Shown piece by piece: positions 1 through 38,561 of a DNA stretch of 40,000 nucleotides (its first letter is position 1; each line of letters begins with the position of its first letter). The stretch is from Orbus wheelerorum (GTDB taxonomy: Bacteria; Pseudomonadota; Gammaproteobacteria; Enterobacterales; Orbaceae), in assembly GCF_036251935.1 (NCBI RefSeq), contig NZ_CP133967.1; one strand, 5' to 3'. The notes beneath the pieces are model-generated. The model saw nothing but the letters and a program-made list of their open reading frames with translations, had not been told where the DNA came from and searched no databases. The position numbers and the translations under genes are program-made.

Positions 1-666
1 GATCGCCAGGCGCTTGATTTAATCGTTGAAAAAGGTGCTTGTGCCCATGTGACAACGCAATCTGCAACCAAAGTTCATATGATGGAAGCGAATTATGCGA
101 CCCAATTTCAAAATATTATCGTTGAGGAAAATGGCTATTTAGAATATTTACCCGATCCAATAATTCCTCACCGTAACTCACGATTTATTACCGATACTCA
201 CATTACTATTCACCCAAGTGCTACGATGATTTATTCTGAAATACTTATGTCCGGTCGTAAGTATCATCACCTTGATGAACAATTTGGTTTTGATATTTTT
301 TCATCACTCATTAGAGCTGAGTCATCTTCTAATAAAGCGTTATTTGTCGAAAAATATATTTTAGAACCCAAAAAAAATCAATTAAATCTAGCCGCCGTTA
401 TGGGCGCGTTTGATACATTTGGTAATGTAATTTTATTAACACCGAAAAAATATCATAGTCCTATTTTAGAACGCCTAGATGCCATTTATGATCTCACAAA
501 TGACATTGCTTTTGGTGCAACGCAATTACCTAATGACGCTGGGATCATCTTTAAGGTATTAGGGATTAATAGCCCAAAAGTAAAAGATGCCGTGAGATAT
601 TTTTGGCAAATAGCGCGCGAAGAAATAAAAGGGGTCTCATTACAAAAGCCATTTCTATGGCGCTAA
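1..666 (+). CDS. ureD: Urease accessory protein UreD/UreH, 5'-truncated by the window edge
   Basis: Frame 1 is open from base 1 (DRQALDLIVEKGACAHVTTQSATKV...), so the GTG at 49 in the ORF track is probably internal. The translation looks like the C-terminal two thirds of UreD (SEILMSGRKYHHLDEQFGF..., GNVILLTP). A urea channel gene follows directly, as in ureABCEFGD-yut type loci. Confidence 0.8.
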   Translation, partial: DRQALDLIVEKGACAHVTTQSATKVHMMEANYATQFQNIIVEENGYLEYLPDPIIPHRNSRFITDTHITIHPSATMIYSEILMSGRKYHHLDEQFGFDIFSSLIRAESSSNKALFVEKYILEPKKNQLNLAAVMGAFDTFGNVILLTPKKYHSPILERLDAIYDLTNDIAFGATQLPNDAGIIFKVLGINSPKVKDAVRYFWQIAREEIKGVSLQKPFLWR

Positions 667-682
667 GTTAGGGGCAATAAGA

Positions 683-711
683 TTGCAACGTTAATACTTA
701 ATTTTTATAAA
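683..711 (+). promoter_or_regulatory. Candidate sigma70 promoter for the urea channel gene
   Basis: TTGCAA (683-688), 17 nt spacer, TATAAA (706-711), about 75 nt upstream of the ATG at 787. Pattern match only. Confidence 0.4.
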
Positions 712-786
712 TGTTAATTTATTTCTTAATAATTAATAGTGTCGCACCTAAATACGACTCTATTTACATTTGTATTTAAGGAGCAA

Positions 787-1782
787 ATGATGGAAACCTC
801 AATAACAAACAAGTCTGCTTGGGCGCGATTCGTTGATAAAAATATTTTTATACAATTTTTTGATGTAACGTTACGTGGCTGTGCACAAGTTATGTTTCAA
901 AATAACCCATTAACAGGATTACTCTTTTTTATTGCTATTTTTACCGGTGCTTTTCTTGAAAAAATACCCGAGGTTGCTTTTGGCTGCTTATTAGGGACGG
1001 TAATTGCGACATTGACCGCTTATATTAGTAAATTAGATATAGATTCATTGCGTTCAGGGCTTTATGGTTATAATGGCTGTTTAGTTGGTGTTGCGCTTCC
1101 TGCTTTTTTAGAAAATACACCGTTTACGTGGTTATCGGTTATTTTAGGTAGTATTGTATCGGTTATTGCAACGATCTCTTTAATGGATTTTTTAAGAAGT
1201 TGGAAAGTATCGGCATTAACCGCCCCTTTTGTATTAGTATCATGGACCATTTTATTAGCGAGCTACAGTTTTTTAGGTATTAAAGGTGTGTCTTTACCAG
1301 AGCCAACACTTCCTCATCAGTACATTGAGCCTATTGGCCATCATCCATCAATTGATCTTGTTGTTGTGGTATTTCGAGGGGTATCAGAGGTCTTTTTATT
1401 AAATAGTGTGATCGTTGGCGTTATATTTACTATCGGTTTAGCCGTTAGCTCTATTTGGGCTGCCATTTTTGCTATATTAGGTTCACTTTTAGCTTTTAGC
1501 ATCGCGTCATTATTAAAAGCTGATATCGCAAGTATTCATGCCGGGCTATATTCTTTTAGTGCGGTATTAACAGCAATAGCATTAGGCTCGACATTTAATA
1601 AACCTAGTTGGCGAGGATTAATTTATGCCGTTATCGGTATTATTTTTACCGTTTTTGTGCAAGGCGCTTTAGATGTTGTTTTGAAGCCTTTTGGTATTCC
1701 AACATTGACTATGCCATTTGTTTTAGCATCATGGTTATTTTTAATACCTAACCAAGATATTATGCCTAACCACCGCCGATAA
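787..1782 (+). CDS. yut: Urea transporter, UT family (Yut-like channel)
   Basis: Polytopic membrane protein of about 331 aa with the UT-family N-terminal signature (VMFQNNPLTGLLFFIAIF). I prefer the ATG at 787, preceded by AAGGAG at 778-783, over the GTG at 739 given in the ORF track. It lies directly downstream of ureD. Confidence 0.85.
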   Translation: MMETSITNKSAWARFVDKNIFIQFFDVTLRGCAQVMFQNNPLTGLLFFIAIFTGAFLEKIPEVAFGCLLGTVIATLTAYISKLDIDSLRSGLYGYNGCLVGVALPAFLENTPFTWLSVILGSIVSVIATISLMDFLRSWKVSALTAPFVLVSWTILLASYSFLGIKGVSLPEPTLPHQYIEPIGHHPSIDLVVVVFRGVSEVFLLNSVIVGVIFTIGLAVSSIWAAIFAILGSLLAFSIASLLKADIASIHAGLYSFSAVLTAIALGSTFNKPSWRGLIYAVIGIIFTVFVQGALDVVLKPFGIPTLTMPFVLASWLFLIPNQDIMPNHRR

Positions 1783-1800
1783 GTTTAGTGGTGGTGTTTT
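1769..1800 (+). terminator. Weak candidate rho-independent terminator at the end of the ure-yut unit
   Basis: accaccgc (1769-1776) pairs with gtggtggt (1788-1795), including one G-U pair, and is followed by gtttt. It overlaps the yut stop codon and sits between convergent genes. Confidence 0.3.
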
Positions 1801-1832: not shown

Positions 1833-2645
1833 TTAAGACGATGAGTCTTTCAGCGATAATTGTTGTATGGCTTTGGCAAATTGGTCAAACAATAAAACAA
1901 GTCCCATTAATGCAAGGCCAGGGAATACGGCAAGCCACCATGCCCCAGTATTGAGATAACGCAGTGCATCAGATAATAAAATGCCTAATGATGCGTCATG
2001 AGGCGATAGGCCAAAACCCAGAAAACTTAATGCAGCACTGTGTAAAATCGCATGGGGGAACATTAATAACGTACCGACAATCCATTGTGAAAGAATCATT
2101 GGTATATAGTGGTGCCAGCACCGATAAAAAGCACCATCACCAATGCGGCGTGATAACATAATATAGTCCGCCTGTTGTACTCTTAGCAGCTCAGAACGTA
2201 ATATCAGCGTTAGTTTTGGCCAATGAGTTAATGCTACCGCCCAAATCACGCCTGCTTTGCCGCCCCCTAGCGTGAAACAAATGAGTATCAACAATAATAG
2301 ATGTGGTAATGCTAATAACGAGTCAATAATGCCACGAACAAGGTAGTCCATCGCTTTATTAAACGATGATAAGCCGGTCATAATAAGCGCAATAAGGCCG
2401 CTTGATAGTGATGCAATTAGACCAATTTGTAAGCTAGTACTTAGGCCTTGAAACACCAGTTGCCATAAATCACGGCCTAAGTTATCAGTGCCAAACAAAT
2501 GCCCTAGTGATGGGCCTTGACGCCTATCAAGTAAATTGAGCGTAACATCGATGTGAGAAAGCCAAAAACCATAGCTTCCTAATATCACAAGACAAAATAG
2601 TGAGATAATTAATTTGATGAATGCTCGGTTAGGATTATAAGTCAT
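1833..2645 (-). CDS. ABC transporter permease, Nik/Opp/Dpp 'C' type (NikC/YntC-like)
   Basis: 270 aa with about 6 TM segments and binding-protein-dependent transport inner-membrane domain features. Its start overlaps the stop of the upstream permease gene by 4 nt (ATGA), indicating translational coupling. Confidence 0.85.
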   Translation of the reverse strand: MTYNPNRAFIKLIISLFCLVILGSYGFWLSHIDVTLNLLDRRQGPSLGHLFGTDNLGRDLWQLVFQGLSTSLQIGLIASLSSGLIALIMTGLSSFNKAMDYLVRGIIDSLLALPHLLLLILICFTLGGGKAGVIWAVALTHWPKLTLILRSELLRVQQADYIMLSRRIGDGAFYRCWHHYIPMILSQWIVGTLLMFPHAILHSAALSFLGFGLSPHDASLGILLSDALRYLNTGAWWLAVFPGLALMGLVLLFDQFAKAIQQLSLKDSSS

Positions 2646-3610
2646 GATTCTCTAATCACTCCTTTATTTACCTTTTTAAGCATAATATTCGCGATGTTGT
2701 TGCTAAAAAAGATGACTATCGCACATAACATAACGATTGCCATCAATAATGGTATATCACCTCGAAGCCCAGCATCTATGGTTGCTTGCCCAAGTCCCGG
2801 ATAGGCAAAAACCTTTTCAGCAAGTAAAGAGCCGCTAATTAGTTCGCCAATGGATGCAAATTGTAAACATATTGCTGGAGTGATGGCATGTTTTAAGATA
2901 TGAAAAAAAATCATTGCCCATCCTTTATCTCCTTGAGCTTTGGCGTAGTAAATAAATTCACTATTCATCACTTCGGCAATTTTTGAGCGAGTATGTAGCG
3001 CAATTGATCCAACGCCTGATATACCAAGCGCAATGACTGGTAATATCAGGTGATGTAACTTTTGTGATAAGTCAGATGTTTGCTCATCTAAACCTATTGG
3101 CCAAGCACAGCAAATGGGTGCCCATTGCAATGATACCGCAAATAAATAGAGTAGTAGTAAACCTATCCAAAATACAGGTGTAGAGGCTAATAAATAAGCG
3201 AGAAGTGAAATGATTTTATCAGGCCAACAATTTAAATAACGGCCAGCTATCAGCCCCATACCAAAGCCAACAATACCAGAAAAGATCCATGCTGAGACTA
3301 AGAGTGCCAAGGATGGAATAAGCCTACCTGATATTACCTGTAGTACTGGTGCATTATAGATCATGGAATATCCCATGTCGCCTTGCAGTAACTGCGAAAA
3401 CCAGCGCCAAAATTGTAGCCATAAGGGTTGATCAAGCCCCCAGCGTGCAGCAATTAAAGGATACTGTTCTGGGGGGATATACATTAAATCACTACCAATA
3501 TAAGCTTTAATCGGATCGATTGGCGAATAGCTTAGCAAAATAAAAACGCCAGCAGCGGTTATCACCAATGAACAAATAAACCGAAATATAAGCTTGATTG
3601 ATGTTTGCAT
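2642..3610 (-). CDS. ABC transporter permease, Nik/Opp/Dpp 'B' type (NikB/YntB-like)
   Basis: 322 aa polytopic permease. Its ATG shares one base with the stop codon of the binding-protein gene (TAATG at 3608-3612 on the minus strand). Confidence 0.85.
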   Translation of the reverse strand: MQTSIKLIFRFICSLVITAAGVFILLSYSPIDPIKAYIGSDLMYIPPEQYPLIAARWGLDQPLWLQFWRWFSQLLQGDMGYSMIYNAPVLQVISGRLIPSLALLVSAWIFSGIVGFGMGLIAGRYLNCWPDKIISLLAYLLASTPVFWIGLLLLYLFAVSLQWAPICCAWPIGLDEQTSDLSQKLHHLILPVIALGISGVGSIALHTRSKIAEVMNSEFIYYAKAQGDKGWAMIFFHILKHAITPAICLQFASIGELISGSLLAEKVFAYPGLGQATIDAGLRGDIPLLMAIVMLCAIVIFFSNNIANIMLKKVNKGVIRES

Positions 3611-5199
3611 TATTTACAGGTCCATCGCCATTCATCGACATTATTTAATACAGACCAAGAACCATGGATCTCTGGAGCGCTTTTACCTAATTCAACACAA
3701 TTATTTAATAAATAAATATGCTGCACATTAACTAACCAAGCCCAGGCCGCATCGCCTTTAATTCCTGTTCCAGTCTTACCATTCCAATCAACTTTTTGCC
3801 ATAGTGGTATCGCCATTTTTTGGTCGGCTTGGCGCAGTGCTTGTTCAAGTATTTCATCTACCTGAGGATTTTTATAGTAACCAGGATTATAATAGCCAAT
3901 CCCCGCCGCCTTGCTGCTGTAGTTATGTACTAGCTCCATCGGATCTAAGCTTCCCCAACCAAATAACGTTGGGTTTGCATGCATGTAACGCTCAACCGTT
4001 TCCCAACTTCCTGATTTTAGATCCATTTCAATGCCAATTGGCTTTAAGCTCGCTTTAATCGCTTGAGCTAAATCCCGACGAGTTGTATCACCACTTGCAT
4101 ACCACAATGTCAATTTTGCAATTTTACCGTTTTTTTCTCTTAAGCCATTTTGGTTTAAATACCAACCTGCTTGTTCTAGTACCGCTTTTGCTTTTGTAAT
4201 ATCGCCATCTTTGAAGGCTGAATCAGGGCTATTCCACGGCAGTCCTTCAACCCCGGTATAAGCAGGAATTGCAAATCCTTCTAAAATAGATTTTGATAAT
4301 AATTTTCGATCAATTGCATAGTTTATTGCCCGGCGAATAGCTACATCGGATGTGACATCATTACCGATAGGCGCACCTTGTGCATTTTTTTCACCTGCTG
4401 GAGGGATAGGAAATGAAATACCTCGATTTTCGACGCTTTGGCGTTCGATTAATTTCATATTTTTTATATCATGAGCGTCAGTTGCAACGGCTGCAGGTAT
4501 ACGTACGATATCTAACTGACCGCTTTGCCCTGCGGCAAAAGCAGTATCTTCATCAAGGAAAACGAATACCATTTTACCAAAATCATTTTTTGGGCCTGCA
4601 TAGTATGGATTTCTTTCAACGAGTAATTGTTGCCCGGGCTGAAAAGCGACTAAACGATATGGGCCCGCTCCTATCGGATTATGTGCATATTTTTTTGCAT
4701 CATATTTATCGGCTGGAATAATGCCTAATGAACCTAGCACATTGATAAAGGTACTTTGCGGTGATGATAATGTGATTTTTACCGTTAGGGGATCGATAAG
4801 CTCAGCCTTATCAAAATTACCCATATCAATTTTTCCGCCACTGAGCGCTGCATTATTATAGGTAAAAACAATATCTTTTGCGGTTAAGGGGGAGCCATCA
4901 GAAAATTTTAAGCCACCTTTTAGTTTAAGTAGCCATTGCATGCCATCATCACTATGTTGATAGTTTTCAAGTAAATAACTATGCCATGATAAATCTGCAT
5001 TTTGTTTCAGTAATGGGCTATGGAGAAGTAGATAACTACCATGGCTCCAACCTAACATCGGGTCAAACCCTTCAGTTGGCTCTGCGCCAATGGCTAAACG
5101 TAAAGTTTGCTCAGGTTTTGATTGGGCTGCATAGGCTTGTATCGAAAGCCCTACAAAGAAAATAGTTTGAATCGCGATTAAGATCTTTTTCTTTATCAT
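3610..5199 (-). CDS. Periplasmic substrate-binding protein, family 5 (NikA/YntA/Opp type). Nickel or metallophore specificity is inferred from context only.
   Basis: 529 aa with a signal peptide (MIKKKILIAIQTIFFVGLSIQAYA/AQ). Size and architecture fit cluster C, family 5 SBPs. It is the first gene of a three-gene minus-strand operon next to the urease locus. Confidence 0.8.
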   Translation of the reverse strand: MIKKKILIAIQTIFFVGLSIQAYAAQSKPEQTLRLAIGAEPTEGFDPMLGWSHGSYLLLHSPLLKQNADLSWHSYLLENYQHSDDGMQWLLKLKGGLKFSDGSPLTAKDIVFTYNNAALSGGKIDMGNFDKAELIDPLTVKITLSSPQSTFINVLGSLGIIPADKYDAKKYAHNPIGAGPYRLVAFQPGQQLLVERNPYYAGPKNDFGKMVFVFLDEDTAFAAGQSGQLDIVRIPAAVATDAHDIKNMKLIERQSVENRGISFPIPPAGEKNAQGAPIGNDVTSDVAIRRAINYAIDRKLLSKSILEGFAIPAYTGVEGLPWNSPDSAFKDGDITKAKAVLEQAGWYLNQNGLREKNGKIAKLTLWYASGDTTRRDLAQAIKASLKPIGIEMDLKSGSWETVERYMHANPTLFGWGSLDPMELVHNYSSKAAGIGYYNPGYYKNPQVDEILEQALRQADQKMAIPLWQKVDWNGKTGTGIKGDAAWAWLVNVQHIYLLNNCVELGKSAPEIHGSWSVLNNVDEWRWTCK

Positions 5200-5391
5200 T
5201 CTTCTCTCCTAATTTTTAGAGGTCTTTTACTCGTCATCAAATAATTTATATTATTTTTAGTTATTTTATCAGCGGTAAGCTGACATACGTTTTTGTAATA
5301 TCGCTATTACGAATCAAAAGGTGTGTTGAATATACTGATATTGTTTGCAATAGTGCTTTTTATTCTGCTTGCGTCAAAACAAACACCACAA

Positions 5392-5417
5392 CCAATCGCC
5401 ACGAGTATTGCGATTGG
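5392..5417 (-). terminator. Possible terminator hairpin downstream of amtB
   Basis: ccaatcgc (5392-5399) and gcgattgg (5410-5417) form an 8 bp stem with a 10 nt loop. On the minus strand it is followed by the T-rich ttgtggtgtttgtttt. It lies 38 nt after the amtB stop. Confidence 0.35.
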
Positions 5418-5454
5418 CCGTAGTTATCGATCTTAATAAATTAACAGAAGATTG

Positions 5455-6699
5455 TTATTCAGCTTTTTCTGTATAGGCATCTTCACCAAATTGATTAATA
5501 TCTAAATTATTACCGACAGCAGTTTGATTCACTTTAACTGGCGTAAATTTATTGATGATCCATAAAATAATCAGGGTGAAAACAAAAGACCAAACACTGG
5601 TAAATACGACAGCAACTATTTGTTTTACAACTTGCATTGCATTGCCTTCTAATAAGCCAGCAGGGCCTTTATCATTCCAAATAGTTGATGCGAAGATCCC
5701 AACTAGTATCGAGCCAGTTATACCGCCAACACCATGCACGCCAAAAACATCGAGCGCATCATCGAAATGACGTCTAACTAAAAAGACAGCGCAGTAGCAA
5801 ACAATACTTGCAATAATACCAATAATTGCAGCTGAGCTGATTGAAACATATCCTGAGGCCGGCGTGATGGTTGCAAGCCCTGCGATGGCGCCAGTTAAAA
5901 ATCCAACTAATTTAGGTTTACCAGTATGAATTTTTTCGATAATAAACCAAGTAATGCCGGCAAATGCAGCTGCAATATCGGTTGTAAGGAAAGCTGAAAC
6001 GGTAACAACATTAACGTTTAATTCGGAACCCGCATTAAATCCATACCATCCAAACCAAAGTAATGCTGCGCCTAAAGCTACAAAAGGAATATTATGAGTA
6101 CCATCAGAGCGAATTACTCTTTTACCAACATAAATTGCTGATGCAATAGCGGCAAATCCTGCGGTTGCATGAACAACAATACCACCTGCAAAATCGACCA
6201 CTCCCCATTTAGCTAAAATACCTTCAGGGCTCCATACCATATGGACAAAAGGGCAATAAACAAATAGTGTCCATAATGTTAAAAAAATCAAATAAGCAGG
6301 AAAATTAACTCTATTAGCAAAGGCGCCGGTAATTAAAGCGGGAGTGATTATTGCAAACATCATTTGATAGCCAAAATGGACTAGCAGCGGCAAGCCGCCG
6401 TTATTACCTGTATACATCGTATGCGGCGCAACATCATTTAAAAATGCATAATAAAAGGGATCACCAACGATACCATTGATAGAGGGGCCAAATGATAGCG
6501 AGTACCCAACAGCAAACCAAATGATAGCAACCCATCCCATAGAAAAAAAACTTTGTGACATAATCGTAATTACGCTTTTACGAGAAACTAATCCCCCATA
6601 AAAAAAAGCAAGCCCTGGAGTCATCAGCATGACGAGACTTGTGCAAAGTAGTATAAATGCGGTATTAGGAACATCTAAAAACGATAGTATATTTTCCAT
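5455..6699 (-). CDS. amtB: Ammonium transporter AmtB (Amt/Mep/Rh family)
   Basis: 414 aa. It carries Amt signatures including both pore histidine contexts (DFAGGIVVHATAGFAA and DVFGVHGVGGITGSILVG). It begins directly at TM1 with no obvious cleavable signal peptide. Confidence 0.92.
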   Translation of the reverse strand: MENILSFLDVPNTAFILLCTSLVMLMTPGLAFFYGGLVSRKSVITIMSQSFFSMGWVAIIWFAVGYSLSFGPSINGIVGDPFYYAFLNDVAPHTMYTGNNGGLPLLVHFGYQMMFAIITPALITGAFANRVNFPAYLIFLTLWTLFVYCPFVHMVWSPEGILAKWGVVDFAGGIVVHATAGFAAIASAIYVGKRVIRSDGTHNIPFVALGAALLWFGWYGFNAGSELNVNVVTVSAFLTTDIAAAFAGITWFIIEKIHTGKPKLVGFLTGAIAGLATITPASGYVSISSAAIIGIIASIVCYCAVFLVRRHFDDALDVFGVHGVGGITGSILVGIFASTIWNDKGPAGLLEGNAMQVVKQIVAVVFTSVWSFVFTLIILWIINKFTPVKVNQTAVGNNLDINQFGEDAYTEKAE

Positions 6700-7112
6700 A
6701 AATTCTCCAATATGAAATAGTCGTATATAGTACTAATCAAAATTATCTATTTGAATAAATATAACTTATTTGTCTTATCTTAGATCTTACTTATTTGCTA
6801 TTTAAAGGCGGCATTGTTTGTTGCTATTTAATCGTATAATAAATCGACTTATTGTATTTTACTAGTCTTAAATGGCCGTCATTGATTATTTGTAATAATT
6901 ATTTGATAAATTAAATTGATGATTTTTAATAAGATCATTGTTTAGAACGGATTTTTTATGCTTATCTTGATGTAACGTAATATCGGCATAAACTCAATTA
7001 AGTGATACATCGTATCAAGGTTAGACTATGATGAATTAGATGATAAATCTTTTCAATATTAGAGGATTTTAGCATTGTTGCTAGCCTAAATCTTAATCGG
7101 TAAAATGAGTTT

Positions 7113-7149
7113 TATTCATTGGCAATAATATGATATGTGCCAATGAATA
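7113..7149. repeat. Perfect 12 bp inverted repeat (tattcattggca N13 tgccaatgaata)
   Basis: Read directly from the sequence. Arms are at 7113-7124 and 7138-7149. It lies 52 nt downstream of the DUF2165-like gene stop and about 415 nt upstream of the amtB start. No adjacent T-run on either strand, so it could be an operator or a T-run-less terminator. Confidence 0.5.
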
Positions 7150-7201
7150 GTTACCTATATACACAGATCTTGATAAAAACGCTATCAATGCCCTAAATTG
7201 C

Positions 7202-7723
7202 TTAACGCTGTTGATGGTTTTCTTTTTGAGCTAATAATACAATAATTGCAGTTATACAAGGAAGTGCATATATCATTGCCCCTAATTGAGTATTTAATGG
7301 ATTTACTTTTGCTTGCCAAGCCATAAACCAATCGCCAGCAACAACCATAAAACCAACGCCCCAAACTAAGACTGCACAAGATGCTCCAAGCATCGCCAAT
7401 GCTTTTCCTTTGCTAAATAATAGATATGATTTATTGAAATTTTTAACCATGACAATTAATCCTAAGCTTGCAAATATTCCACCTAGCGTTTCCATGGTCG
7501 TAATTAGCGCAAGTCCAACATAGCCGGCCCAAGGTAGATCGATTGCTCGCCACATTAACCAACTATTATTTGCTGTATTTTCCATTGATAATAATGGCGC
7601 TACAGCATATTGTACCGTACCTGAAAAGCCAGCTAAATTATTTAAAAAGCTAAATAATCCCCATAAAGCAGGGAATAACGCCATTACTAAACAAACAAAC
7701 CGGGAAACTTTCACTTCACTCAT
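7202..7723 (-). CDS. Small integral membrane protein, DUF2165-like
   Basis: 173 aa with 4 predicted TM segments. The motif pattern (FLNNL...VAPLLSMENT...WRAI...METLGG...GDWFMAWQ) matches my recollection of the DUF2165 family. Function is unknown. Confidence 0.6.
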   Translation of the reverse strand: MSEVKVSRFVCLVMALFPALWGLFSFLNNLAGFSGTVQYAVAPLLSMENTANNSWLMWRAIDLPWAGYVGLALITTMETLGGIFASLGLIVMVKNFNKSYLLFSKGKALAMLGASCAVLVWGVGFMVVAGDWFMAWQAKVNPLNTQLGAMIYALPCITAIIVLLAQKENHQQR

Positions 7724-9037: not shown

Positions 9038-9088
9038 GTTGTAAGCTAATTATACTCGTTACTTAGGCTATAAATTAGTTGGTTAAAT

Positions 9089-9122
9089 ATTAGCACCAGA
9101 TAATGGTGCTAATTCTTTTTTC
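9089..9122 (+). terminator. Rho-independent terminator or attenuator after the major pilin gene
   Basis: 10 bp perfect stem, attagcacca (9089-9098) with tggtgctaat (9104-9113), 5 nt loop, followed by tcttttttt. This is the typical position for setting a high pilin to assembly-protein ratio. Confidence 0.7.
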
Positions 9123-9137
9123 ATTTAAAGGTATGGC

Positions 9138-9833: not shown

Positions 9834-9864
9834 GCAAACTAAATAAAAAATAAAATAAAATAAA

Positions 9865-19794: not shown

Positions 19795-19796
19795 TT

Positions 19797-28259: not shown

Positions 28260-28269
28260 AGAGGCTACG

Positions 28270-30031: not shown

Positions 30032-30033
30032 TT

Positions 30034-30519: not shown

Positions 30520-30600
30520 CATTCTAAGTTCGCAACGAGGCGATGAAAAATAGTTACGAATTTAAATTATTAAATCTAAGTAGTGCAATAAGGATAAATT

Positions 30601-31125
30601 ATGAATAAATTTATTAATGCAGATGCCAGCGCATGTATCGGTTGTAAAACCTGCGAAATTGCATGTGTACTTGCGCATGGGGAAGAAATTAGAACGATAG
30701 AAAGTGCTCATTTTAATTCAAGATTAGATGTGATTGAAGTTGGTGATATCACGGTGCCTGTTATGTGCCATCAATGTGAAGATGCACCATGTATGCTTGC
30801 TTGTCCTAATGGGGCGATTATTCGTCAAAACAATCATATTAAAGTTTTACAAGAAAAATGTATTGGGTGTAAAACCTGTGTTTTAGCATGCCCATTTGGT
30901 GCGATGAAGGTAAAGTTAAAAATTGAAGACTTAATAGTTGCTGGGCATGCAAGAGGAAAACGATATAAGGCTCAAGCGATTAAATGTGATATTTGCTATT
31001 CCGATCCAAACGGCCCTGCATGTGTACGTACTTGCCCGACCAAAGCATTATCTTTAGTTGATCTTGATGATTTGATAAAAATTCAAGAAAAGCGCCAGCG
31101 TGATAGTGTTTTAGCGATTCGATAA
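30601..31125 (+). CDS. hydN: HydN-type 4x[4Fe-4S] electron-transfer protein (FDH-H-associated)
   Basis: 174 aa (E. coli HydN is 175 aa). It starts MNKFINADASACIGCKTCEIAC and has four Cys-cluster motifs. It lies immediately upstream of fdhF. Confidence 0.85.
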   Translation: MNKFINADASACIGCKTCEIACVLAHGEEIRTIESAHFNSRLDVIEVGDITVPVMCHQCEDAPCMLACPNGAIIRQNNHIKVLQEKCIGCKTCVLACPFGAMKVKLKIEDLIVAGHARGKRYKAQAIKCDICYSDPNGPACVRTCPTKALSLVDLDDLIKIQEKRQRDSVLAIR

Positions 31126-31171
31126 ATTAATTTTATCAAATTTTATCTTATAGAATATAAGAGGTAATCGA

Positions 31172-33358
31172 ATGAAAAATGTTATTGAAGTTTGTCCGTA
31201 TTGTGGCTCTGGTTGCAAAATTAATTTGAGCATTAACAATGGTAAAGTGATCGGAGCTAGCGGTGCTAATGGATTAACAAATGAAGGTGAATTATGTTTG
31301 AAAGGATTATACGGTTGGGATTTTATTCATGACACTAAAATTTTAACGCCTAGACTTAAAAATCCAATGATCCGCCGTGAGAAAAAAGGTGAGCTTGAAG
31401 CCGTTTCTTGGCAAGAGGCGATTGCATTTATCACAGAAAAATTTAAAGCAATAAAAGAGCAATATGGCGCAGATGCGATTATGTGCTCAGGCTCTTCTCG
31501 TAGCACGGGCAATGAAACCAATTATGTAATGCAAAAATTTGCTAGAGCTGCGATTGGTACTAATAATGTCGATTGCTGTGCAAGAGTATGTCATGGCCCA
31601 TCTGTCGCAGGTCTACAGCTTTCAGTCGGCGGCGGCGCTATGAGTAATTCAATTGTTGAAATTGATGATACTAAGTGTATTTTTATTTTTGGTTGGAATC
31701 CCGCAACATCACATCCTATTATTGCTCGACGTATACTTAGAGCCAAAGAAAATGGTGCAAAAATCATTGTTTGTGATCCGCGTAAGATTGAAACTGCAAG
31801 GATCGCTGATATTTATGTACCATTAAAAAATGGTAGTAATATTGCATTTTTAAATTCTGTTGCTTACGTTTTACTGGAAGAAAATCTTATAAATCGGTCA
31901 TTCATTGATAAATATACTGATGGTTTTGAGCAATTTAAACAAATCATTATGCAATACCCACCTGAATCAACGCAGGCAATAACAGGAATTGATCCTTTCG
32001 TTGTTCGTGAAGTTGCAAGAATGTATGCAACCTCTCCCACTTCTGGAATTTTTTGGGGAATGGGGGTTTGCCAGTTTTATCAGGGGGTTGAGACCGTGCG
32101 AGCATTGGCTAGCTTAGCGTTATTAACCGGCCAAATTGGCCGGCCAAATACAGGATTAGGGCCTGTTAGAGGCCAAAATAATGTGCAAGGTGCCTGTGAT
32201 ATGGGGGCATTACCTAATCAGTTTCCTGGTTATCAAAATGTTACCGATCCAGAAGCAAGAGCTAAGTTTGAGAAAGCATGGGGGGTTGAAAAACTTCCTG
32301 ATACGATTGGAACGTATCTTACCGAAATTGCGATGAAAGCGGAGCAAGGCTTACTTAAAGCATTTTATTGCATGGGGGAAGATCCTTTGCAAACCGAACC
32401 TGATTTATCGGCGGTAAGACATGGCTTTAGTAAGCTTGATCTACTAATTGTGCAAGATGTATTTATGACGAAAACCGCCGCAGTAGCTGATGTTATATTG
32501 CCTGCAACAACGTGGGGGGAGCATGAAGGCGTCTATTCTGCAGCCGATAGAGGTTTCCAGCGTTTTTATAAAGCAGTTGAGCCGGTTGGTGATGTCAAAG
32601 TTGATTGGGAAATTATTAGCTTGCTTTCAAGTGCTTTAGGTTATCCGATGCATTATAATAATACTCAAGAAATCTGGGATGAACTGCGTGAGCTGTGCCC
32701 TCAATATTATGGTGCAACCTATGAAAAAATGGATGCTAATGGCGGCTTAGGTTATGTGCAGTGGCCGTGCCCTACGCTTGACTCACCGGGCTCTCGTTAT
32801 TTATATAGTGACGGGCAAGGCGGCGTTAAATTTGACACGCCAAATGGTAAAGGGCAGTTATTTACCTGTGATTGGGCACATCCAGTAGAAAGAACTAATG
32901 ATGAATATCCACTTATTTTAACAACAGTGCGCGAAGTAGGGCACTATTCTTGCCGCTCGATGACGGGTAATTGCCGAGCTTTAGCAATCTTAGCTGATGA
33001 GCCTGGCTATGTACAAATAAATATTCAAGATGCTAAAGCACTTAATATTAAGGATGATGAGTTGGTTTGGATTGAATCTTGCCGTGGAAAAGTGATATCG
33101 CGTGCAAGTGTCAGTGATAGAACCAATAAAGGGGCCGTTTACATGACTTATCAATGGTGGATAGGGGCTTGTAATGAACTTATTGGCGAGCATTTAAGCC
33201 CTATTAGCCGAACGCCCGAGTATAAATATGTACCGGTTAAATTGACGTCAATTAATGATCAACAGTGGGCTGAAGGTTATGTGCTAGAAGAATATCATCA
33301 ATTAAAACACCGTCTTCGTTCTCAAACTGAAAACGCAACATTTCCATCCTATAAATAA
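31172..33358 (+). CDS. fdhF: Formate dehydrogenase H (FdhF), molybdopterin enzyme. Cysteine variant: Cys140 replaces selenocysteine.
   Basis: 728 aa, co-linear with E. coli FdhF, including the N-terminal 4Fe-4S motif (CPYCGSGCKINL). The active-site context is NNVDCCARVCHGPSVAG, where E. coli has CARVUHGPSVAG. Codon 140 is TGT at 31589-31591, and the ORF has no in-frame TGA. Confidence 0.93.
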   Translation: MKNVIEVCPYCGSGCKINLSINNGKVIGASGANGLTNEGELCLKGLYGWDFIHDTKILTPRLKNPMIRREKKGELEAVSWQEAIAFITEKFKAIKEQYGADAIMCSGSSRSTGNETNYVMQKFARAAIGTNNVDCCARVCHGPSVAGLQLSVGGGAMSNSIVEIDDTKCIFIFGWNPATSHPIIARRILRAKENGAKIIVCDPRKIETARIADIYVPLKNGSNIAFLNSVAYVLLEENLINRSFIDKYTDGFEQFKQIIMQYPPESTQAITGIDPFVVREVARMYATSPTSGIFWGMGVCQFYQGVETVRALASLALLTGQIGRPNTGLGPVRGQNNVQGACDMGALPNQFPGYQNVTDPEARAKFEKAWGVEKLPDTIGTYLTEIAMKAEQGLLKAFYCMGEDPLQTEPDLSAVRHGFSKLDLLIVQDVFMTKTAAVADVILPATTWGEHEGVYSAADRGFQRFYKAVEPVGDVKVDWEIISLLSSALGYPMHYNNTQEIWDELRELCPQYYGATYEKMDANGGLGYVQWPCPTLDSPGSRYLYSDGQGGVKFDTPNGKGQLFTCDWAHPVERTNDEYPLILTTVREVGHYSCRSMTGNCRALAILADEPGYVQINIQDAKALNIKDDELVWIESCRGKVISRASVSDRTNKGAVYMTYQWWIGACNELIGEHLSPISRTPEYKYVPVKLTSINDQQWAEGYVLEEYHQLKHRLRSQTENATFPSYK

Positions 33359-33380
33359 GTATTTATATCAGCAACACCAA

Positions 33381-33414
33381 AAACCAAGAAAACCTACTTT
33401 TCTTGGTTTTTTTA
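33381..33414 (+). terminator. Rho-independent terminator ending the hyf-hycI-hydN-fdhF transcription unit
   Basis: 12 bp perfect stem, aaaccaagaaaa (33381-33392) with ttttcttggttt (33398-33409), loop cctac, followed by a T-run. Confidence 0.75.
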
Positions 33415-33462
33415 TTTATAATAATTTACGTTGCAGGTGGATAAGTTAAAATTAAGGTATAA

Positions 33463-34089
33463 ATGATGAGTAGCTTAATAAAATCGACAATTAAAGTAGA
33501 TAATTTAACGATAAAGCAAGGTGATAAGACGCTATGGAGAGATCTCTCTTTTTGCTTACAAAGCGGCGATAGGTTAGGGATCTCAGCGCCAAGCGGCTTT
33601 GGTAAAAGTACACTAGGGCGAGTTATTGCACACTGGCAAAAAGTCTCATCGGGTAGCATTTTGCTTGATGGTAATGTTATCTCAACTAAAGGTTATTGCC
33701 CTATTCAGTTAGTTAATCAACACCCTGAACGAAGTTTTAATCCTTATCGCACTTTGCAGGCGAGCTTATATGATGCATGGAACCCTGCGCCTTGTTGGTT
33801 TGATAAATTATCGATTAAATCAACATGGTTGGCGCGCAGACCAAGCGAACTATCTGGTGGTGAGCTTGCTAGAATTGCTTTATTGCGAGCGTTAGATCCG
33901 CGTACTCAATTTTTGATTGTCGATGAAGCCACTGCGCAACTTGATGCTTATATTCAAGCAAAAATTTGGCAAATTTTAATTGATGAATCAGTCAAACGCC
34001 CTTTAGGAATGCTAATTTTTAGTCATAATAAAACATTATTACAAAAAGTCTGTACCAATATTCTCTATTTTGATGATGCTCGTGACTGA
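33463..34089 (+). CDS. ABC transporter ATP-binding protein, short Nik/Opp 'E/F' type (NikE/YntE-like)
   Basis: 208 aa. Walker A APSGFGKST, signature LSGGELARI, Walker B FLIVDEAT, H-loop FSHN. There is no permease gene next to it. An alternative ATG lies at 33466. Confidence 0.8.
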   Translation: MMSSLIKSTIKVDNLTIKQGDKTLWRDLSFCLQSGDRLGISAPSGFGKSTLGRVIAHWQKVSSGSILLDGNVISTKGYCPIQLVNQHPERSFNPYRTLQASLYDAWNPAPCWFDKLSIKSTWLARRPSELSGGELARIALLRALDPRTQFLIVDEATAQLDAYIQAKIWQILIDESVKRPLGMLIFSHNKTLLQKVCTNILYFDDARD

Positions 34090-34095
34090 ATTATA

Positions 34096-34866
34096 TTAGC
34101 CTATAAATTTATGTTCAGGCAATGCATCCCATAAACATAGTGACCACTCACTTGCTTGCCGCCTCTTTAGTTGACTTGGCGTTACGATTTCTTCAAGTCT
34201 ACCACCATGTAAAACGGCTATCCGATCTGCAAATTTAGCTGCCATGGCAAGATCATGCGTAACCCATAAGATCCCTCGGCCTTGTTCACATAATTTTTTT
34301 AGGTACGTTAGCAATTGCATTGCATGCTTGTCATCAAGCCAAGACGTTATTTCATCAGCCAATATGTACTGAGCATGGGTTAATGTTGCGTTACATGCTA
34401 ATACTCTTTTTGCCATTCCACCCGATAACTGCCTTGGATAAAAATTGACAATATTTTTTTGTAATTCAAATTGCTGTAAAAGATGTAAAACTTCATGAGA
34501 GTGCTTTTGTACCCCACTTAGTTTAGTCGTTCGTTTTAATTGTGGACCGATGCGGATAAGAGGGTTAAGTGCACTAACACCTTGAGGAACATAACAAATC
34601 GTATTACCGCGTAGTTGGCTTTTTTTTGCTTCAGTTATTACCTGACCATTGATTGAAATATGGCCACTAGAGCGCATATTGTTAGGTAATAAACCGAGGG
34701 TATTTTGCAAAAATATACTCTTACCTTCACCACTACCACCAATTAGTGCGACAACTTCCCCTGGATTAATTCCAATAGTTATATCCTTCAATAAAGGTTG
34801 CCAAGTTTTAACGCCTAACCACTTAAATTGAGCAATATCGATAGCGATATTTTCAAATGTTAACAT
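34096..34866 (-). CDS. ABC transporter ATP-binding protein, Nik/Opp 'D' type (NikD/YntD-like)
   Basis: 256 aa. Walker A GGSGEGKS, signature LSGGMAKRV, Walker B ILADEITSWLD, H-loop VTHD. It is convergent with the preceding ATPase gene, with stop codons 6 bp apart. Confidence 0.8.
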   Translation of the reverse strand: MLTFENIAIDIAQFKWLGVKTWQPLLKDITIGINPGEVVALIGGSGEGKSIFLQNTLGLLPNNMRSSGHISINGQVITEAKKSQLRGNTICYVPQGVSALNPLIRIGPQLKRTTKLSGVQKHSHEVLHLLQQFELQKNIVNFYPRQLSGGMAKRVLACNATLTHAQYILADEITSWLDDKHAMQLLTYLKKLCEQGRGILWVTHDLAMAAKFADRIAVLHGGRLEEIVTPSQLKRRQASEWSLCLWDALPEHKFIG

Positions 34867-35362
34867 TATCTAATCCTTACCTTTGATTAAACATCTATGA
34901 TTAAACGTAATGTTGCCAATTTGAGTATTGCTATTATTTATCAAAACTCAGTTTAGAATAGGCAAAATTTTCTTATTCAATCAATGTTAGAGCTAAGATC
35001 TCAATGATTAATAATATCTGTAATTAGGATATTATATAACCATTACCGATTAAAATGCAGTTTTATCATATGCACCAATAAAGCTGATGATGCCGCTGTC
35101 TGTAAACTTAATAAACGACAAGCGATTGTCGGCTAAGCTATTATTGAATTGCTTAAAACATGATGGCTATATAAAACATATCGAAAAGGACCGTCAAATC
35201 CCTCTCAAATTTCCATAAAAACTGACTAATTCATTGTATTATTTTAGATAATTTGTTGATTAAATAATATTAATTAGTTAATCTGTTATGGTAACCCATA
35301 TAAATAACTCTAATCATTCAATTCATTGGTTATCTTTTAGTGCTCAATTTTACGGCCCGGTG

Positions 35363-35390
35363 TTGCTTTTTTTCGAGCCGGGAATATTAT
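35363..35390 (+). promoter_or_regulatory. Candidate sigma70 promoter for gadBC
   Basis: TTGCTT (35363-35368), 16 nt spacer, TATTAT (35385-35390), about 70 nt upstream of the gadB ATG. The spacer contains the 3' arm of a GC-rich inverted repeat, cccgg (35356-35360) with ccggg (35378-35382). Pattern match only. Confidence 0.3.
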
Positions 35391-35461
35391 AAAAAAAGAA
35401 TTACACGTTTTTAATTTGATTTGATCCAGTTAATAAAGTTAATTATTTTATAGGAGCTTTT

Positions 35462-36868
35462 ATGAGTAACGTCAAAAATCATAGTTCGGATTCAGAAAAT
35501 GCAATTGATGATGTTTATGGTTCATCAGAATTAGTCTCATCATTACCAAAAAATAAATTTCCAGCCAAAGAAAAAAATCCACAACATATTTTTAATGCCG
35601 TACGTGATGAGCTAATGCTTGATGGTAATTCAAGACAAAATCTTGCGACTTTCTGTCAAACTTGGGTTGAAGATGAAGTTCGTGAATTAATGGATTTATC
35701 TATCGATAAAAATATGATCGATAAAGATGAATATCCACAAACGGCTGAAATCGAAGCGCGCTGCGTTAGAATGCTTGCCGATCTTTGGAACTCCCCAACA
35801 CCTGATACAACAATGGGATGTTCGACCATTGGTTCATCGGAAGCGGCAATGCTTGGTGGGCTTGCTTTAAAATGGCAATGGCGTAAAAAACGAATTGCCG
35901 AAGGAAAATCTGCGGATAAACCCAATTTGATTTGCGGACCAGTACAGATTTGTTGGCATAAGTTTGCGCGTTATTTTGATGTGGAGTTACGAGAAATTCC
36001 ACTAGAAGGCGAGCGCCTAATTATGAATGCTGAAGAAGTGTTAAAACGTGTAGATGAAAATACCATTGGCGTTGTACCAACATTAGGGGTGACATTTACT
36101 TGTCAATATGAACCCGTTAAAGCAGTTAGTGATGCATTAGATAAATTACAAAAAGATACTGGTTTAGACATTCCAATTCATGTCGATGGCGCGAGTGGTG
36201 GTTTTTTAGCGCCGTTTTGTGCGCCAGACATTGCGTGGGATTTTCGTTTACCGCGAGTCAAATCAATTAATAGCTCCGGACATAAATTTGGTTTAGCGCC
36301 ATTAGGTGCAGGCTGGGTTGTATGGCGTGAAGCAAAAGATTTGCCTGAGGAGTTAGTGTTTAAAGTTAACTATTTAGGCGGCGATATGCCAACATTTGCC
36401 CTTAACTTTTCTCGCCCTGGTGGACAAATTATTGCCCAATATTATAACTTCTTACGATTAGGTAAAGAAGGTTACGCAAAAATTCATAATGCTTGTTATA
36501 GCACTGCTCAATATCTTTCTGCCGAAATTGCCAAATTAGGGCCATTTGAGATTCTATTTGATGGCGATTCTCAAAAAGGGATCCCCGCTTTAGCATGGAA
36601 ATTAAAAAATGGCTCAACTATTGGTGGATATACTCTTTATGATTTAGCCGATCGTTTACGTATCCGCGGGTGGCAAGTTCCAGCCTACTCAATGCCAGCA
36701 AATAGAGAAGATCTCGTTGTTCAACGAATATTAGTTCGTCATGGTGTTAGTCGCGATTTAGCTAATTTGCTGTTAGATGATATGAAACGTGCACTGGATT
36801 ATTTTGCTAAGCACCCAGTGACAAATCCTCTTTCAGAAAAAGAAGCGAGTGGGTTTAATCATGGTTAA
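35462..36868 (+). CDS. gadB: Glutamate decarboxylase (PLP-dependent), GadA/GadB orthologue
   Basis: 468 aa (E. coli GadB is 466 aa) and co-linear with it. Matching segments include NLATFCQTW, the PLP-lysine motif [11 protein letters not shown], and [12 protein letters not shown] penultimate His (…FNHG) parallels E. coli …FKHT. Confidence 0.95.
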
Positions 36869-36938
36869 TGTCTAATTTATTTAGCATAACTATCGATTTT
36901 AATCAGCGTATTAATGATTTTATTTACGAGATGAAATA

Positions 36939-38372
36939 ATGAGCAATACAAATACTGTAAAAAAATTAAGCTTGTTTGGCTTCTTTGCCATCACAGCTTC
37001 AATGGTATTAACCGTATATGAATATCCAGCTTTTGCTGTATCGAAGATGAATTTAGTTTTTTATCTTTTGGTTGCTGGATTTTTGTGGTTTATTCCTGTT
37101 TCACTTGTTTCAGCTGAAATGGCAACGGTTAAAGGGTGGCAAAAAGGCGGGATTTTTACATGGGTTGAAAAAACTCTCGGCCCTAAATGGGGATTTGCCG
37201 CTGTGTTTTATCAATGGTTCCAAATAACGGTTTGCTTTATCACAATGATTTACTTTATTATCGGCGCATTTTCGATGGCCTTTGGTTGGAGTGAGCTAAA
37301 TAGTGATCCATGGCTTAAACTTGCGGCAGTCCTTGTTATCTTTTGGGTCGTGACTATATCACAATTTTGGGGAACGAAATGGACTGAAATTATTGCAAAA
37401 TTCGGTTTTATTTTCGGAGTATTTGGTTCAGGTATTTTATTATTCGTACTTGCTATCATTTATATATTGCAAGGTGGCGATATTCAAGTATCTTTCGGCG
37501 CTGATGCTTGGATCCCTGATTTTTCAAAATTTAACACCTTAGTTATTTTTGTGTCATTCATTTTAGCTTACTGTGGGGTTGAATCATCAGCAAGTCATGC
37601 AAATGAAATGAAAAATCCAGCAAGGGATTACCCATTAGCGATGTTATTGTTAGTTATTGTTGCCATTGGGATTGATATTTTAGGTGGTTTTACGATTGCC
37701 GCGACAATTCCACAAAGTGAGCTTGGATTAAATACCGGTGTTATTCAGGCATTTGAATATTTAATTAGCTATTTTGGTGGCGCAGCTTGGATTGTTAGTG
37801 CGATTGCAATTATTATTTGTATCGGTGTTATTGCGGAAATTGCATGTTGGGTTGTTGGGCCATCAGCAGCACTGTTAAATGCCGCGGAAAAAGGGTTATT
37901 GCCTAAATCATTAGCAAAAACAAACAAAGCTGCCGTTCCGGTTAATCTTGTTATTATTCAAGGTGTTGTTGTTTCGATTTGGGCTTGTGTGCTAACATTA
38001 GGCGGCGGTGGCGGCAATTTATCATTCTTTATTGCTATTGCCTTAACTGTTTGTATTTATCTTGTTGCATATACCTTGATGTTTATTGGTTATTTGAAGT
38101 TAACATATAAACAAACAGAGAAAGAGAGAGCATTTAGGATCCCTGGCGGTAAGTTTGGTAAAACAATTATTGCCTTAGTTGGGCTCGTAATTACTATTTT
38201 TGCATTCTTTATCTCATTCTTCCCACCAGCTAATATTGGTGGAAATATATCAGATTTATCTTATTTTGCGATATTAGTGATTTGCTGGGCTGCGATGGTT
38301 GCGGTGCCGTTTTTAATCTACCATTTTTATGGTAAAAAGCATTACCAACCAGACGTTGCAAGCGATAATTAA
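36939..38372 (+). CDS. gadC: Glutamate:GABA antiporter GadC (APC superfamily), with a short C-terminal tail
   Basis: 477 aa, co-linear with E. coli GadC from the N-terminus (KKLSLFGFFAITASMV..., NEMKNPARDYPLAMLLL). It ends about 10 residues after the last TM segment (…PFLIYHFYGKKHYQPDVASDN), whereas E. coli GadC is 511 aa. Confidence 0.9.
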   Translation: MSNTNTVKKLSLFGFFAITASMVLTVYEYPAFAVSKMNLVFYLLVAGFLWFIPVSLVSAEMATVKGWQKGGIFTWVEKTLGPKWGFAAVFYQWFQITVCFITMIYFIIGAFSMAFGWSELNSDPWLKLAAVLVIFWVVTISQFWGTKWTEIIAKFGFIFGVFGSGILLFVLAIIYILQGGDIQVSFGADAWIPDFSKFNTLVIFVSFILAYCGVESSASHANEMKNPARDYPLAMLLLVIVAIGIDILGGFTIAATIPQSELGLNTGVIQAFEYLISYFGGAAWIVSAIAIIICIGVIAEIACWVVGPSAALLNAAEKGLLPKSLAKTNKAAVPVNLVIIQGVVVSIWACVLTLGGGGGNLSFFIAIALTVCIYLVAYTLMFIGYLKLTYKQTEKERAFRIPGGKFGKTIIALVGLVITIFAFFISFFPPANIGGNISDLSYFAILVICWAAMVAVPFLIYHFYGKKHYQPDVASDN

Positions 38373-38416
38373 TTATTATCGTAACAGATAAATGGGTCTA
38401 AACTTCATTTAGTTAA

Positions 38417-38455
38417 TGTTAACTTGGTGATAATACCACCAAGTTAACAATTTTG
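38417..38455 (+). terminator. Rho-independent terminator after gadC
   Basis: 13 bp perfect stem, tgttaacttggtg (38417-38429) with caccaagttaaca (38437-38449), 7 nt loop, followed by attttgattt. Confidence 0.7.
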
Positions 38456-38561
38456 ATTTACCCTTAAAACCAATACTTTTAAATAAAATGCCATATATCA
38501 CAATGAAACATTTTATTCTAACTGAGCATCTAACTAATCTTTACTAGCATTATCCTTATCC

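Follow-up and report, generated by a model that had tools for sequence, protein, structure and literature searches.

We analyzed a 40-kb stretch of the chromosome of Orbus wheelerorum (NZ_CP133967.1, referred to below as the window), in which genes for urea, nickel and ammonium handling lie close to a complete formate hydrogenlyase-2 (FHL-2), a ClC-type exchanger and the glutamate decarboxylase system gadBC. An initial annotation of this sequence had interpreted the ensemble as a single composite acid-fitness island. Our comparison with related genomes favors a different reading, namely, that the window is likely a plastic stretch in which known, self-sufficient modules were assembled stepwise and now stand side by side, and not one island or regulon.

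Gene content and composition of the window

The 36 open reading frames (ORFs) listed across the window were assigned by family scans, complemented by Rfam, tRNA, repeat and intergenic small-ORF scans. At the left edge, the plus strand carries the 3' portion of ureD, with which ureABCEFGD ends (1-666, ORF 49-666; PF01774, 3e-35), and the urea channel gene yut (739/790-1782; TIGR03441, 334 bits, cutoff 275), whose start is probably 790, giving a protein of 330 amino acids. On the minus strand follow two Providencia-type permease genes of the PepT family, yntC-like (1833-2645) and yntB-like (2642-3610), both NikB/C- and Opp2B/C-like and both scoring under the Nik cutoffs; a yntA-like gene for a periplasmic nickel-binding protein, a family-5 binding protein (3610-5199); and the ammonium transporter gene amt (5455-6699; TIGR00836, 405 bits, cutoff 343), with no glnK adjoining it. 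The H+/Cl- exchanger gene clcA (13505-14863; NF003640, 563 bits, cutoff 350) and yagU (18161-18709; DUF1440, PF07274), which is divergent from hyfA, are also on the minus strand.

The hyfA control region (18996-19115, plus strand) opens the largest block. It precedes hyfABCDEFGHIJ (19177-30031), encoding hydrogenase-4 (Hyd-4) of FHL-2, the maturation protease gene hycI (30034-30519; TIGR00142, 170 bits, cutoff 119), a hydN-like gene for a 4Fe-4S ferredoxin (30601-31125; 3e-52) and the formate dehydrogenase H gene fdhF (31172-33358; TIGR01591, 897 bits, cutoff 666), all on the plus strand. A terminator-like hairpin with a 14-bp stem (33379-33411) follows fdhF. Beyond it lie two ABC ATPase genes of native Orbus type, yntE-like (33463-34089, plus strand, 208 amino acids, NikE-like) and yntD-like (34096-34866, minus strand, 256 amino acids, NikD-like), and then, on the plus strand, gadB (35462-36868; TIGR01788, 645 bits, cutoff 380) and gadC (36939-38372), which starts 70 bp after gadB.

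The remaining genes have no evident part in these systems. They encode a small DUF2165 membrane protein (7202-7723, minus strand; PF09933; 92% identical to that of Orbus sturtevantii), a chaperone-usher fimbrial operon assigned by family scans (8519-13352, plus strand; major subunit, chaperone, usher and adhesin-like subunit), a three-gene lipoprotein operon (15214-16880, plus strand; CsgG-like, DUF4810 and GNA1162-like in Pfam; 91-93% identical to O. sturtevantii) and yehS (17145-17609, plus strand; DUF1456, PF07308). At the right edge is the first of two MsbA-like ABC exporter genes (38562-40000, minus strand), partial in the window, with the second outside it. ORFs, translations and family scans thus recovered every gene of the initial annotation in its place, including those it had listed as interrupting the theme (the fimbrial and lipoprotein operons, yehS and a small membrane protein, here assigned to DUF2165).

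Base composition is flat, with GC at third codon positions (GC3) of 0.19-0.36 across all genes and a window GC of 0.368 against 0.360 for the genome; along the window GC3 is uniform, with no compositional break. The scans of the window found no tRNA gene, no Rfam match or riboswitch, no flanking repeats, and neither a transposase, an integrase nor a regulator gene, intergenic gaps included. The absence of mobility genes and of the regulators known from E. coli, both part of the initial annotation, therefore holds inside the window but not for its neighborhood. YntA and ClcA of the window are 100% identical to O. wheelerorum proteins; its DNA and its fimbrial proteins set it apart from strain lpD03, and most likely it belongs to the type strain, lpD04. 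In lpD03 (CP133962.1; 95.6% DNA identity to the window over 15.2 kb), the complete ureABCEFGD lies upstream, with yut after it, and an IS3-family transposase, comprising a helix-turn-helix ORF and an rve ORF, abuts ureA (contig L084, 20572-21590), about 6.5 kb before the window start. Past the window end, the near-identical contig L001 carries the full exporter pair, an FhlA/HyfR-type sigma-54 activator of 702 amino acids, and hypF; the latter two sit 4.6-6 kb beyond the end, the activator at 4.6 kb.

Comparison with O. sturtevantii and other Orbaceae

Comparisons covered stretches of ±10 kb in a few genomes. In O. sturtevantii (CP133960.1, contig L082), the gene order runs fhlA, selA, dsrE, two exporters, selB, selD, yntD facing yntE, fdhF, hydN, hycI, hyfJ to hyfA and yagU. 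It continues (contig L086) with a radical-SAM activase, a pyruvate formate-lyase (PFL)-like glycyl-radical enzyme, DeoR, yehS and three lipoprotein genes, and ends with clcA, DUF2165, a flavin reductase, yntA, yntB and yntC, followed by unrelated genes. A core of yntABC-DUF2165-clcA-lipoproteins-yehS-yagU-hyf...fdhF-yntE/yntD-exporters-fhlA is therefore common to O. wheelerorum and O. sturtevantii and, among the genomes compared, only to these two, with 79-96% amino acid identity.

DNA alignment defined which segments of the window belong to this core. Shared segments are 1856-5217 (yntC to yntA), 7201-7753 (DUF2165, which directly follows clcA in O. sturtevantii), 13509-18038 (clcA, lipoproteins, yehS), 18069-20591 (yagU, hyfA, hyfB), 24162-34879 (hyf to yntD) and 38562 to the end (exporter). 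Four segments are specific to the window: 1-1855 (ure, yut), 5218-7200 (amt), 7754-13508 (fimbrial operon) and 35066-38561 (gadBC), the last occupied by selD-selB in the same orientation in O. sturtevantii. None of ure-yut, amt, the fimbriae or gadBC was found in the syntenic O. sturtevantii region, which has inserts of its own: the glycyl-radical enzyme cluster, the flavin reductase, selD-selB, selA and dsrE.

Outside these two species the arrangement dissolves. The clcA, yagU, hyf and ynt genes are not adjacent in O. mooreae, O. hercynius, O. sasakiae, about 25 Gilliamella genomes or two uncultured Orbaceae lineages. The neighbors of clcA are wholly different in O. mooreae and unrelated in a Logan contig whose clcA is 81% identical (L090), and no window genes lie within ±10 kb of yagU in O. 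hercynius, Frischella or about 25 Gilliamella genomes. In O. sasakiae, yehS alone adjoins yagU, in the opposite relative orientation. The O. wheelerorum sequences compared, lpD03 and three Logan contigs, retain the arrangement of the window.

Judged from the alignment, the fimbrial operon is an insertion, and its proteins are 88-94% identical between the two O. wheelerorum strains, with flanking genes at 98-100%, which suggests a hypervariable or recombining adhesin locus. The lpD03 fimbrial genes occupy L084 1866-6688, and two metagenomic contigs (L087 and L088) end just after clcA, at the fimbrial edge. In O. sturtevantii, a radical-SAM activase, an 810-amino-acid PFL-like glycyl-radical enzyme and a DeoR regulator lie between yagU and yehS, beside hyf (L086 2716-7039); this insert may be taken as a further sign of an insertion hot spot, with an anaerobic-metabolism flavor. 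YagU is 93% identical to its homologs in O. sturtevantii and O. sasakiae, 87% to that of O. hercynius and 81-90% to those of Gilliamella. Across 80 loci of Orbaceae, Neisseriaceae, Burkholderiales, Rhodobacterales, Rhizobiales and Enterobacterales it is 72-93% identical, and its neighbors are always unrelated. This conservation is unusually high for so patchy a distribution and suggests frequent horizontal transfer of the single gene.

Formate hydrogenlyase-2 and its regulation

At the sequence level, the hyf block has everything expected of an FHL-2: ten hyf genes, a NiFe large subunit with HycI, and FdhF with a sigma-54 activator. The Hyd-4 equivalogs all score above their cutoffs (given in parentheses), with HyfB at 860 bits (667), HyfD at 681 (430), HyfE at 279 (136), HyfF at 782 (610) and HyfH at 292 (270), and HyfJ belongs to the HycH family. 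The set includes three antiporter-like subunits, HyfB, HyfD and HyfF, as well as HyfE, which is not in hyc. HyfG carries the motifs RVCGICGYAH and DPCYSCTDR, the latter followed by a 32-residue extension.

A sigma-54-type -24/-12 element, TGGTATAAATTTTGCT (19100-19115), lies 62 bp before hyfA, and its O. sturtevantii counterpart, TGGCATAAATTTTGCT, is kept inside a variable spacer. About 80 bp upstream of the element is a 42-bp near-perfect palindrome (18996-19037), less conserved in O. sturtevantii, which is a candidate binding site of the FhlA-like activator. Sigma-54 matches number 31 window-wide against 22 ± 4.5 expected by chance, so we used only the conserved hyfA site. The window search found no such element before gadB, clcA, amt or the ynt genes. 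We found no evidence of coregulation across the modules, neither a shared promoter motif nor a shared regulator.

The closest described relative of this block is the experimentally validated FHL-2 cluster of Pectobacterium atrosepticum (PMC7384014), which likewise has the full hyf set, three antiporter-like subunits and a maturation protease, encodes a Cys-type FdhF with the cluster, and has hypF, an HyfR/FhlA-type activator and a nickel transporter gene nearby. The two differ in that nickel enters via an ABC (Ynt) system here and via HoxN there, in that gadBC and two exporter genes stand between hyf and the regulator here, and in that the sister species O. sturtevantii has a selenocysteine (Sec) FdhF with selABD embedded in the cluster.

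The urea module and its Providencia counterpart

The genes at the left end of the window have a close counterpart in one Providencia genome, where amt, yntA, yntB, yntC, yntD, ureABCEFGD and yut are contiguous and codirectional, with amt also adjoining yntA. For genes taken from the window or from lpD03, identity to the Providencia proteins is 88% for Amt, 83% for YntA and YntB, 80% for YntC and 77% for Yut; in the urease it is 95% for UreA, 87% for UreB, 94% for UreC, 78% for UreE, 82% for UreF, 95% for UreG and 86% for UreD. YntD and ClcA, which serve as baselines, are only 60% and 51% identical. On these values, the urea module shares ancestry with Providencia through horizontal transfer. 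Nucleotide identity of the module is about 75% and its codon composition has ameliorated; the exchange would therefore be old or have passed through a third lineage. No hyf, gad, clcA or yagU gene lies within 10 kb of the Providencia locus.

The module also resembles the ure-yut cluster of Yersinia (PMC2806259). As in Yersinia and Providencia, ureABCEFGD is followed by yut in the same order; with Yersinia it further shares acid-optimum UreC residues and a binding protein close to YpYntA, and with Providencia the position of amt directly beside yntA. Unlike in both, ure-yut runs in the opposite direction to yntABC in O. wheelerorum, and the importer's own ATPase gene, located between yntC and ureA in Providencia, is missing.

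UreC of lpD03 carries ELFDMIMVCHNLNP, with Phe at -7 and Asn at +1 of the catalytic His, residues reported for the acid-optimum ureases of Yersinia and Morganella (PMC2806259). The O. wheelerorum urease is thus predicted to have an acidic optimum. Urease activity has been measured in lpD03 and lpD04, and activity and genes are both absent in O. sturtevantii lpD02 (PMC11434166). That source is inconsistent on the latter point, in that its O. sturtevantii description lists urease as positive and its results text and tables give lpD02 as urease negative and without the genes. Our data agree with lpD02 lacking the genes, as no ure genes are present in the syntenic O. sturtevantii region examined.

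A nickel importer in two parts

The initial annotation had proposed a Nik/Ynt-like importer that could feed both urease and Hyd-4. The nickel link is strengthened by YntA, which matches PDB 4OFL ("Extracytoplasmic Nickel-Binding Protein YpYntA") with 866 bits (E = 7e-260) and is 74% identical to its Yersinia proxima homolog. Against the E. coli NikA equivalog it scores 121 bits, far under the cutoff of 393, and is therefore of the Ynt type and not of the Nik type. The importer is not one locus: the genes lie in two places and have two ancestries. In Y. proxima, yntABCDE is canonical and codirectional, with a short YntE of 221 amino acids. Here the five genes A to E do not form one codirectional operon; yntABC (1833-5199) and the ATPase genes (33463-34866) are separated by 29 kb, and yntE and yntD, of other ancestry than yntABC, are mutually convergent with a 6-bp gap (34089-34096), a layout unlike those of Yersinia and Providencia.

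An uncultured Orbaceae contig (L083, 5384-10127) carries selB, selD, yntA-B-C-D facing yntE, and fdhF. In that lineage a complete importer is therefore physically tied to hyf-fdhF, and yntE is already convergent. The window YntD and YntE are 79% and 73% identical to this native set, as opposed to 67%, 66% and 58% for YntA, YntB and YntC; to O. sturtevantii, YntD and YntE are 85% and 81% identical. Neither O. wheelerorum nor O. sturtevantii still has the native binding protein and permeases next to yntD, and the Providencia-type yntABC of both species comes without an ATPase. The convergent ATPase pair recurs in three Orbaceae lineages, with a gap of 6-9 bp or an 11-bp overlap (L082 10771-10781; L083 9498-9508).

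Between the two Orbus species, the ratio of nonsynonymous to synonymous divergence (dN/dS) is 0.07 for yntD, 0.11 for yntE and 0.08 for yntA, yntB and yntC, and the dS of the ynt genes (1.1-1.7) is similar to that of the backbone (0.7-1.3). Given the low dN/dS and the backbone-like dS, both halves of the importer have been under purifying selection since the species split. We infer that they probably now work together, as YntABC with YntD/E. We also considered yntE as the last gene of the hyf-fdhF operon and dropped this assignment, since yntE is separated from fdhF by the terminator-like hairpin and by a promoter-like site.

gadBC, selenium and ClcA

DNA alignment places the breakpoints of the gadBC segment at 35066 and 38561, where it fills the slot of selD-selB. 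The active site of FdhF reads CCARVCHGPS in the window, with Cys at codon 140, and CCARV(TGA)HGPS, with Sec, in O. sturtevantii. In the O. sturtevantii sel regions used for comparison (L082 6820-9700 and 768-2108), selA lies between the exporters and fhlA; it is not found between them in contig L001. The pattern suggests that selenocysteine usage was lost recently and that FdhF was recoded along with this loss. A selenium-free FdhF works in the FHL-2 complex of P. atrosepticum (PMC7384014).

GadB scores 629 bits against the structure of E. coli GadB, to which it is about two-thirds identical by eye, and keeps both the pyridoxal phosphate (PLP) lysine (SGHKFG) and the penultimate C-terminal His (...FNHG). 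GadC has 477 amino acids and aligns to residues 7-470 of the 511-residue E. coli protein (494 bits to the structure). In E. coli, a C-terminal plug gates GadC transport by pH. The O. wheelerorum protein is without this plug (E. coli residues ~477-511), and its equivalog score (615 bits) is just under the cutoff (673.5). The closest metagenomic GadB relatives are 80-86% identical and reside on contigs of 44-61% GC with unrelated flanks and with GadC only about 50% identical; among the 80 closest metagenomic gadB loci, none lies beside hyf, ure, clc or ynt genes. The translation of clcA contains the motifs GSGIPE, GREGP, IEEM and GNY, of which we take the last three to correspond to the external gating Glu, the internal Glu and the central Tyr of ClC-ec1.

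The region shares with the E. coli acid fitness island and Gad-ClC systems its GadB and GadC homologs, its ClC-ec1-type exchanger and the presence of several acid genes together. It differs in the plugless GadC and in the urease, FHL-2 and Ynt genes, which are not in the E. coli island, and none of gadE/X/W, hdeAB, hdeD, slp or mdtEF is present among the 36 window proteins or the intergenic ORFs. In addition, clcA lies within 21 kb of gadBC here, whereas it is unlinked to gadBC in E. coli. The initial annotation had contrasted the region with loci scattered in E. coli; this contrast spans two different bacterial orders.

Stepwise assembly of the region

Two parts of the initial annotation are borne out: the colocalization is real, with each module a credible member of its family, and the arrangement seems to be new, as we found no paper describing it. 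It is, then, undescribed yet built of known parts; the paper describing O. wheelerorum mentions neither the region nor horizontal transfer nor Providencia. The single composite island is not upheld: the comparisons largely bear out what the annotation had named in advance as speaking against it, namely, independent acquisition of the modules and an adjacency confined to one lineage.

We consider stepwise assembly in a flexible region the likely explanation. The first module would be the FHL-2 regulon (hyfA-J, hycI, hydN, fdhF and, further on, fhlA and hypF), with a nickel importer natively attached (yntABCD facing yntE). The second would be the Yersinia/Providencia-type urea module, amt-yntABC(D)-ureABCEFGD-yut. 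The third would be gadBC, and the fourth the single genes clcA and yagU, with the fimbriae, the lipoprotein operon, yehS and DUF2165 as passengers. In the ancestor of O. wheelerorum and O. sturtevantii, about 30 kb would already have lain between a Providencia-type yntABC and the importer linked to hyf. A complementary loss may have followed, with the ATPase going from the foreign importer and the binding protein and permeases from the native one. In the O. wheelerorum line, gadBC would have replaced selD-selB, selA would have been lost, FdhF would have changed from Sec to Cys, and the fimbrial operon would have been inserted; ure-yut and amt may either have persisted here while O. sturtevantii lost them, or have arrived later. 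The clustering itself would follow from preexisting subclusters and repeated insertion or replacement in one flexible region.

By homology, the functions of the modules can be anticipated. Urea would enter through Yut and be split by the acid-optimum urease, and FHL-2 would convert formate and H+ to H2 and CO2, its sigma-54 promoter being driven by the nearby FhlA-like activator. GadB would decarboxylate glutamate and GadC would swap glutamate for γ-aminobutyrate (GABA), with ClcA as a possible chloride/proton shunt, and YntABC with YntD/E would deliver nickel to urease and Hyd-4.

Under uniform placement, the chance of three to five independent modules falling within 45 kb of a 2.9-Mb chromosome is about 7e-4 to 3e-7 by our own arithmetic. 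This null overstates significance because the theme was picked post hoc, two of the modules are preassembled clusters and the region is plastic. With two or three events, a proton-consuming theme cannot be told apart from chance in such a region.

Several points weigh against stepwise, neutral accretion. The ure-yut-amt genes and gadBC are two of the three function-adding differences of O. wheelerorum relative to O. sturtevantii; both are proton-consuming and next to FHL-2 and ClcA, which is more thematic than neutral accretion would lead one to expect. The Orbus-Providencia exchange may have run in either direction and may have involved more than one transfer. Other gene copies, or partner ATPases for YntABC, may exist elsewhere in the chromosome. 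Finally, the comparison covers short stretches of a few genomes, and the available phenotype data concern urease activity.

Alternative explanations

A theme other than acid is a possibility that we hold tentatively. According to this alternative, the region is organized around the anaerobic metabolism of formate and hydrogen and the nickel that this requires, the urea module and amt recover nitrogen from host waste, and gadBC, clcA and yagU are neighbors by coincidence. The ancestral link seen in the uncultured Orbaceae contig is that of the nickel importer and hyf-fdhF; hypF and fhlA flank the region, a PFL-like glycyl-radical enzyme and its activase sit between yagU and yehS in O. sturtevantii, and amt accompanies ynt-ure in Providencia too. 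Bee-associated Orbaceae are described as aiding urea metabolism (PMC13372188). Such a theme accounts for the ancestral core no less well than acid does. Yet the urease has acid-optimum residues and comes with Yut, like the acid-protective systems of Yersinia (PMC2806259), and for gadBC no role is known beyond acid or GABA metabolism. The acid and non-acid themes are, moreover, not mutually exclusive.

It is unlikely, in our judgment, that the region is a selected acid-fitness supercluster, in which an acidic fly midgut favored the union of three proton sinks, their channels and a nickel supply that are coinherited and perhaps coregulated. The fly gut does have an acidic region, and O. wheelerorum was isolated from wild Drosophila and is urease positive. 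All modules are intact, the genes tested are under purifying selection, and the catalytic and transport features described above (the acid-optimum UreC signature, the PLP lysine and C-terminal His of GadB, the ClcA exchanger motifs) are in place; the arrangement recurs in each of the two known strains of the species and in three of its metagenomic contigs. The urease of Proteus is of the ureR-ureDABCEFG type, and to our knowledge the Proteus loci have not been reported as adjacent. Like O. wheelerorum, P. mirabilis has a Hyf hydrogenase, an FhlA-type activator and a urease in one organism, and a published study connects its FhlA-dependent Hyf, urease and acid tolerance functionally via deacidification (PMC7658346), a link between FHL and urease that would support a supercluster; in O. 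wheelerorum, the link is positional only.

Other observations speak against a selected supercluster. The full adjacency is found in one species and only partly in one sister species, about a quarter of the block consists of non-acid passengers, the nearest gadB relatives are never beside these modules, and no regulator or promoter motif is shared, the sigma-54 element being at hyfA only. Published growth ranges are pH 5.5-8.0 for O. wheelerorum, 6.0-9.0 for O. sturtevantii and 5.0-9.5 for the urease-negative O. mooreae. The range of O. wheelerorum is thus barely better than that of O. sturtevantii and worse than that of O. mooreae; these are growth data, not survival data, and they show no striking acid tolerance.

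A narrower variant, which we also regard as improbable, builds on the importer: reciprocal loss would have left both nickel enzymes dependent on one split importer, with the foreign YntABC encoded beside urease and the native YntD/E beside Hyd-4, and the later replacement of the selenocysteine genes by gadBC, next to ClcA, would have completed a coinherited pH and nickel homeostasis unit held together by selection in the acidic fly gut.

Uptake of the region en bloc as a mobile genomic island from another bacterium is already contradicted and very improbable, since, the IS3-family transposase at ureA in lpD03 and the ure-ynt-amt part shared with Providencia notwithstanding, there is no integrase, tRNA, flanking repeat or compositional break, the backbone tracks the species phylogeny (79-96% identity to O. 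sturtevantii, dS ~1.0-1.7), none of hyf, gad, clcA and yagU is found within 10 kb of the Providencia locus, and the modules differ in their closest relatives and are present or absent module by module.

Implications

The region does not change the understanding of any of the systems that it contains; its value lies in a comparative and experimental entry point and not in a new mechanism. It provides case studies of the exchange of a urea/nickel/ammonium module between fly-associated Orbus and Providencia, of an ABC importer that may have been kept functional after complementary gene loss, and of what looks like a recent Sec-to-Cys switch in FdhF coupled to the loss of selA, selB and selD. Conjugative Pathfinder plasmids work in lpD04 (PMC11434166). 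Should the modules cooperate, O. wheelerorum could serve as a compact, genetically tractable model of how urease, FHL and the glutamate decarboxylase system together carry a gut symbiont through an acidic gut region.

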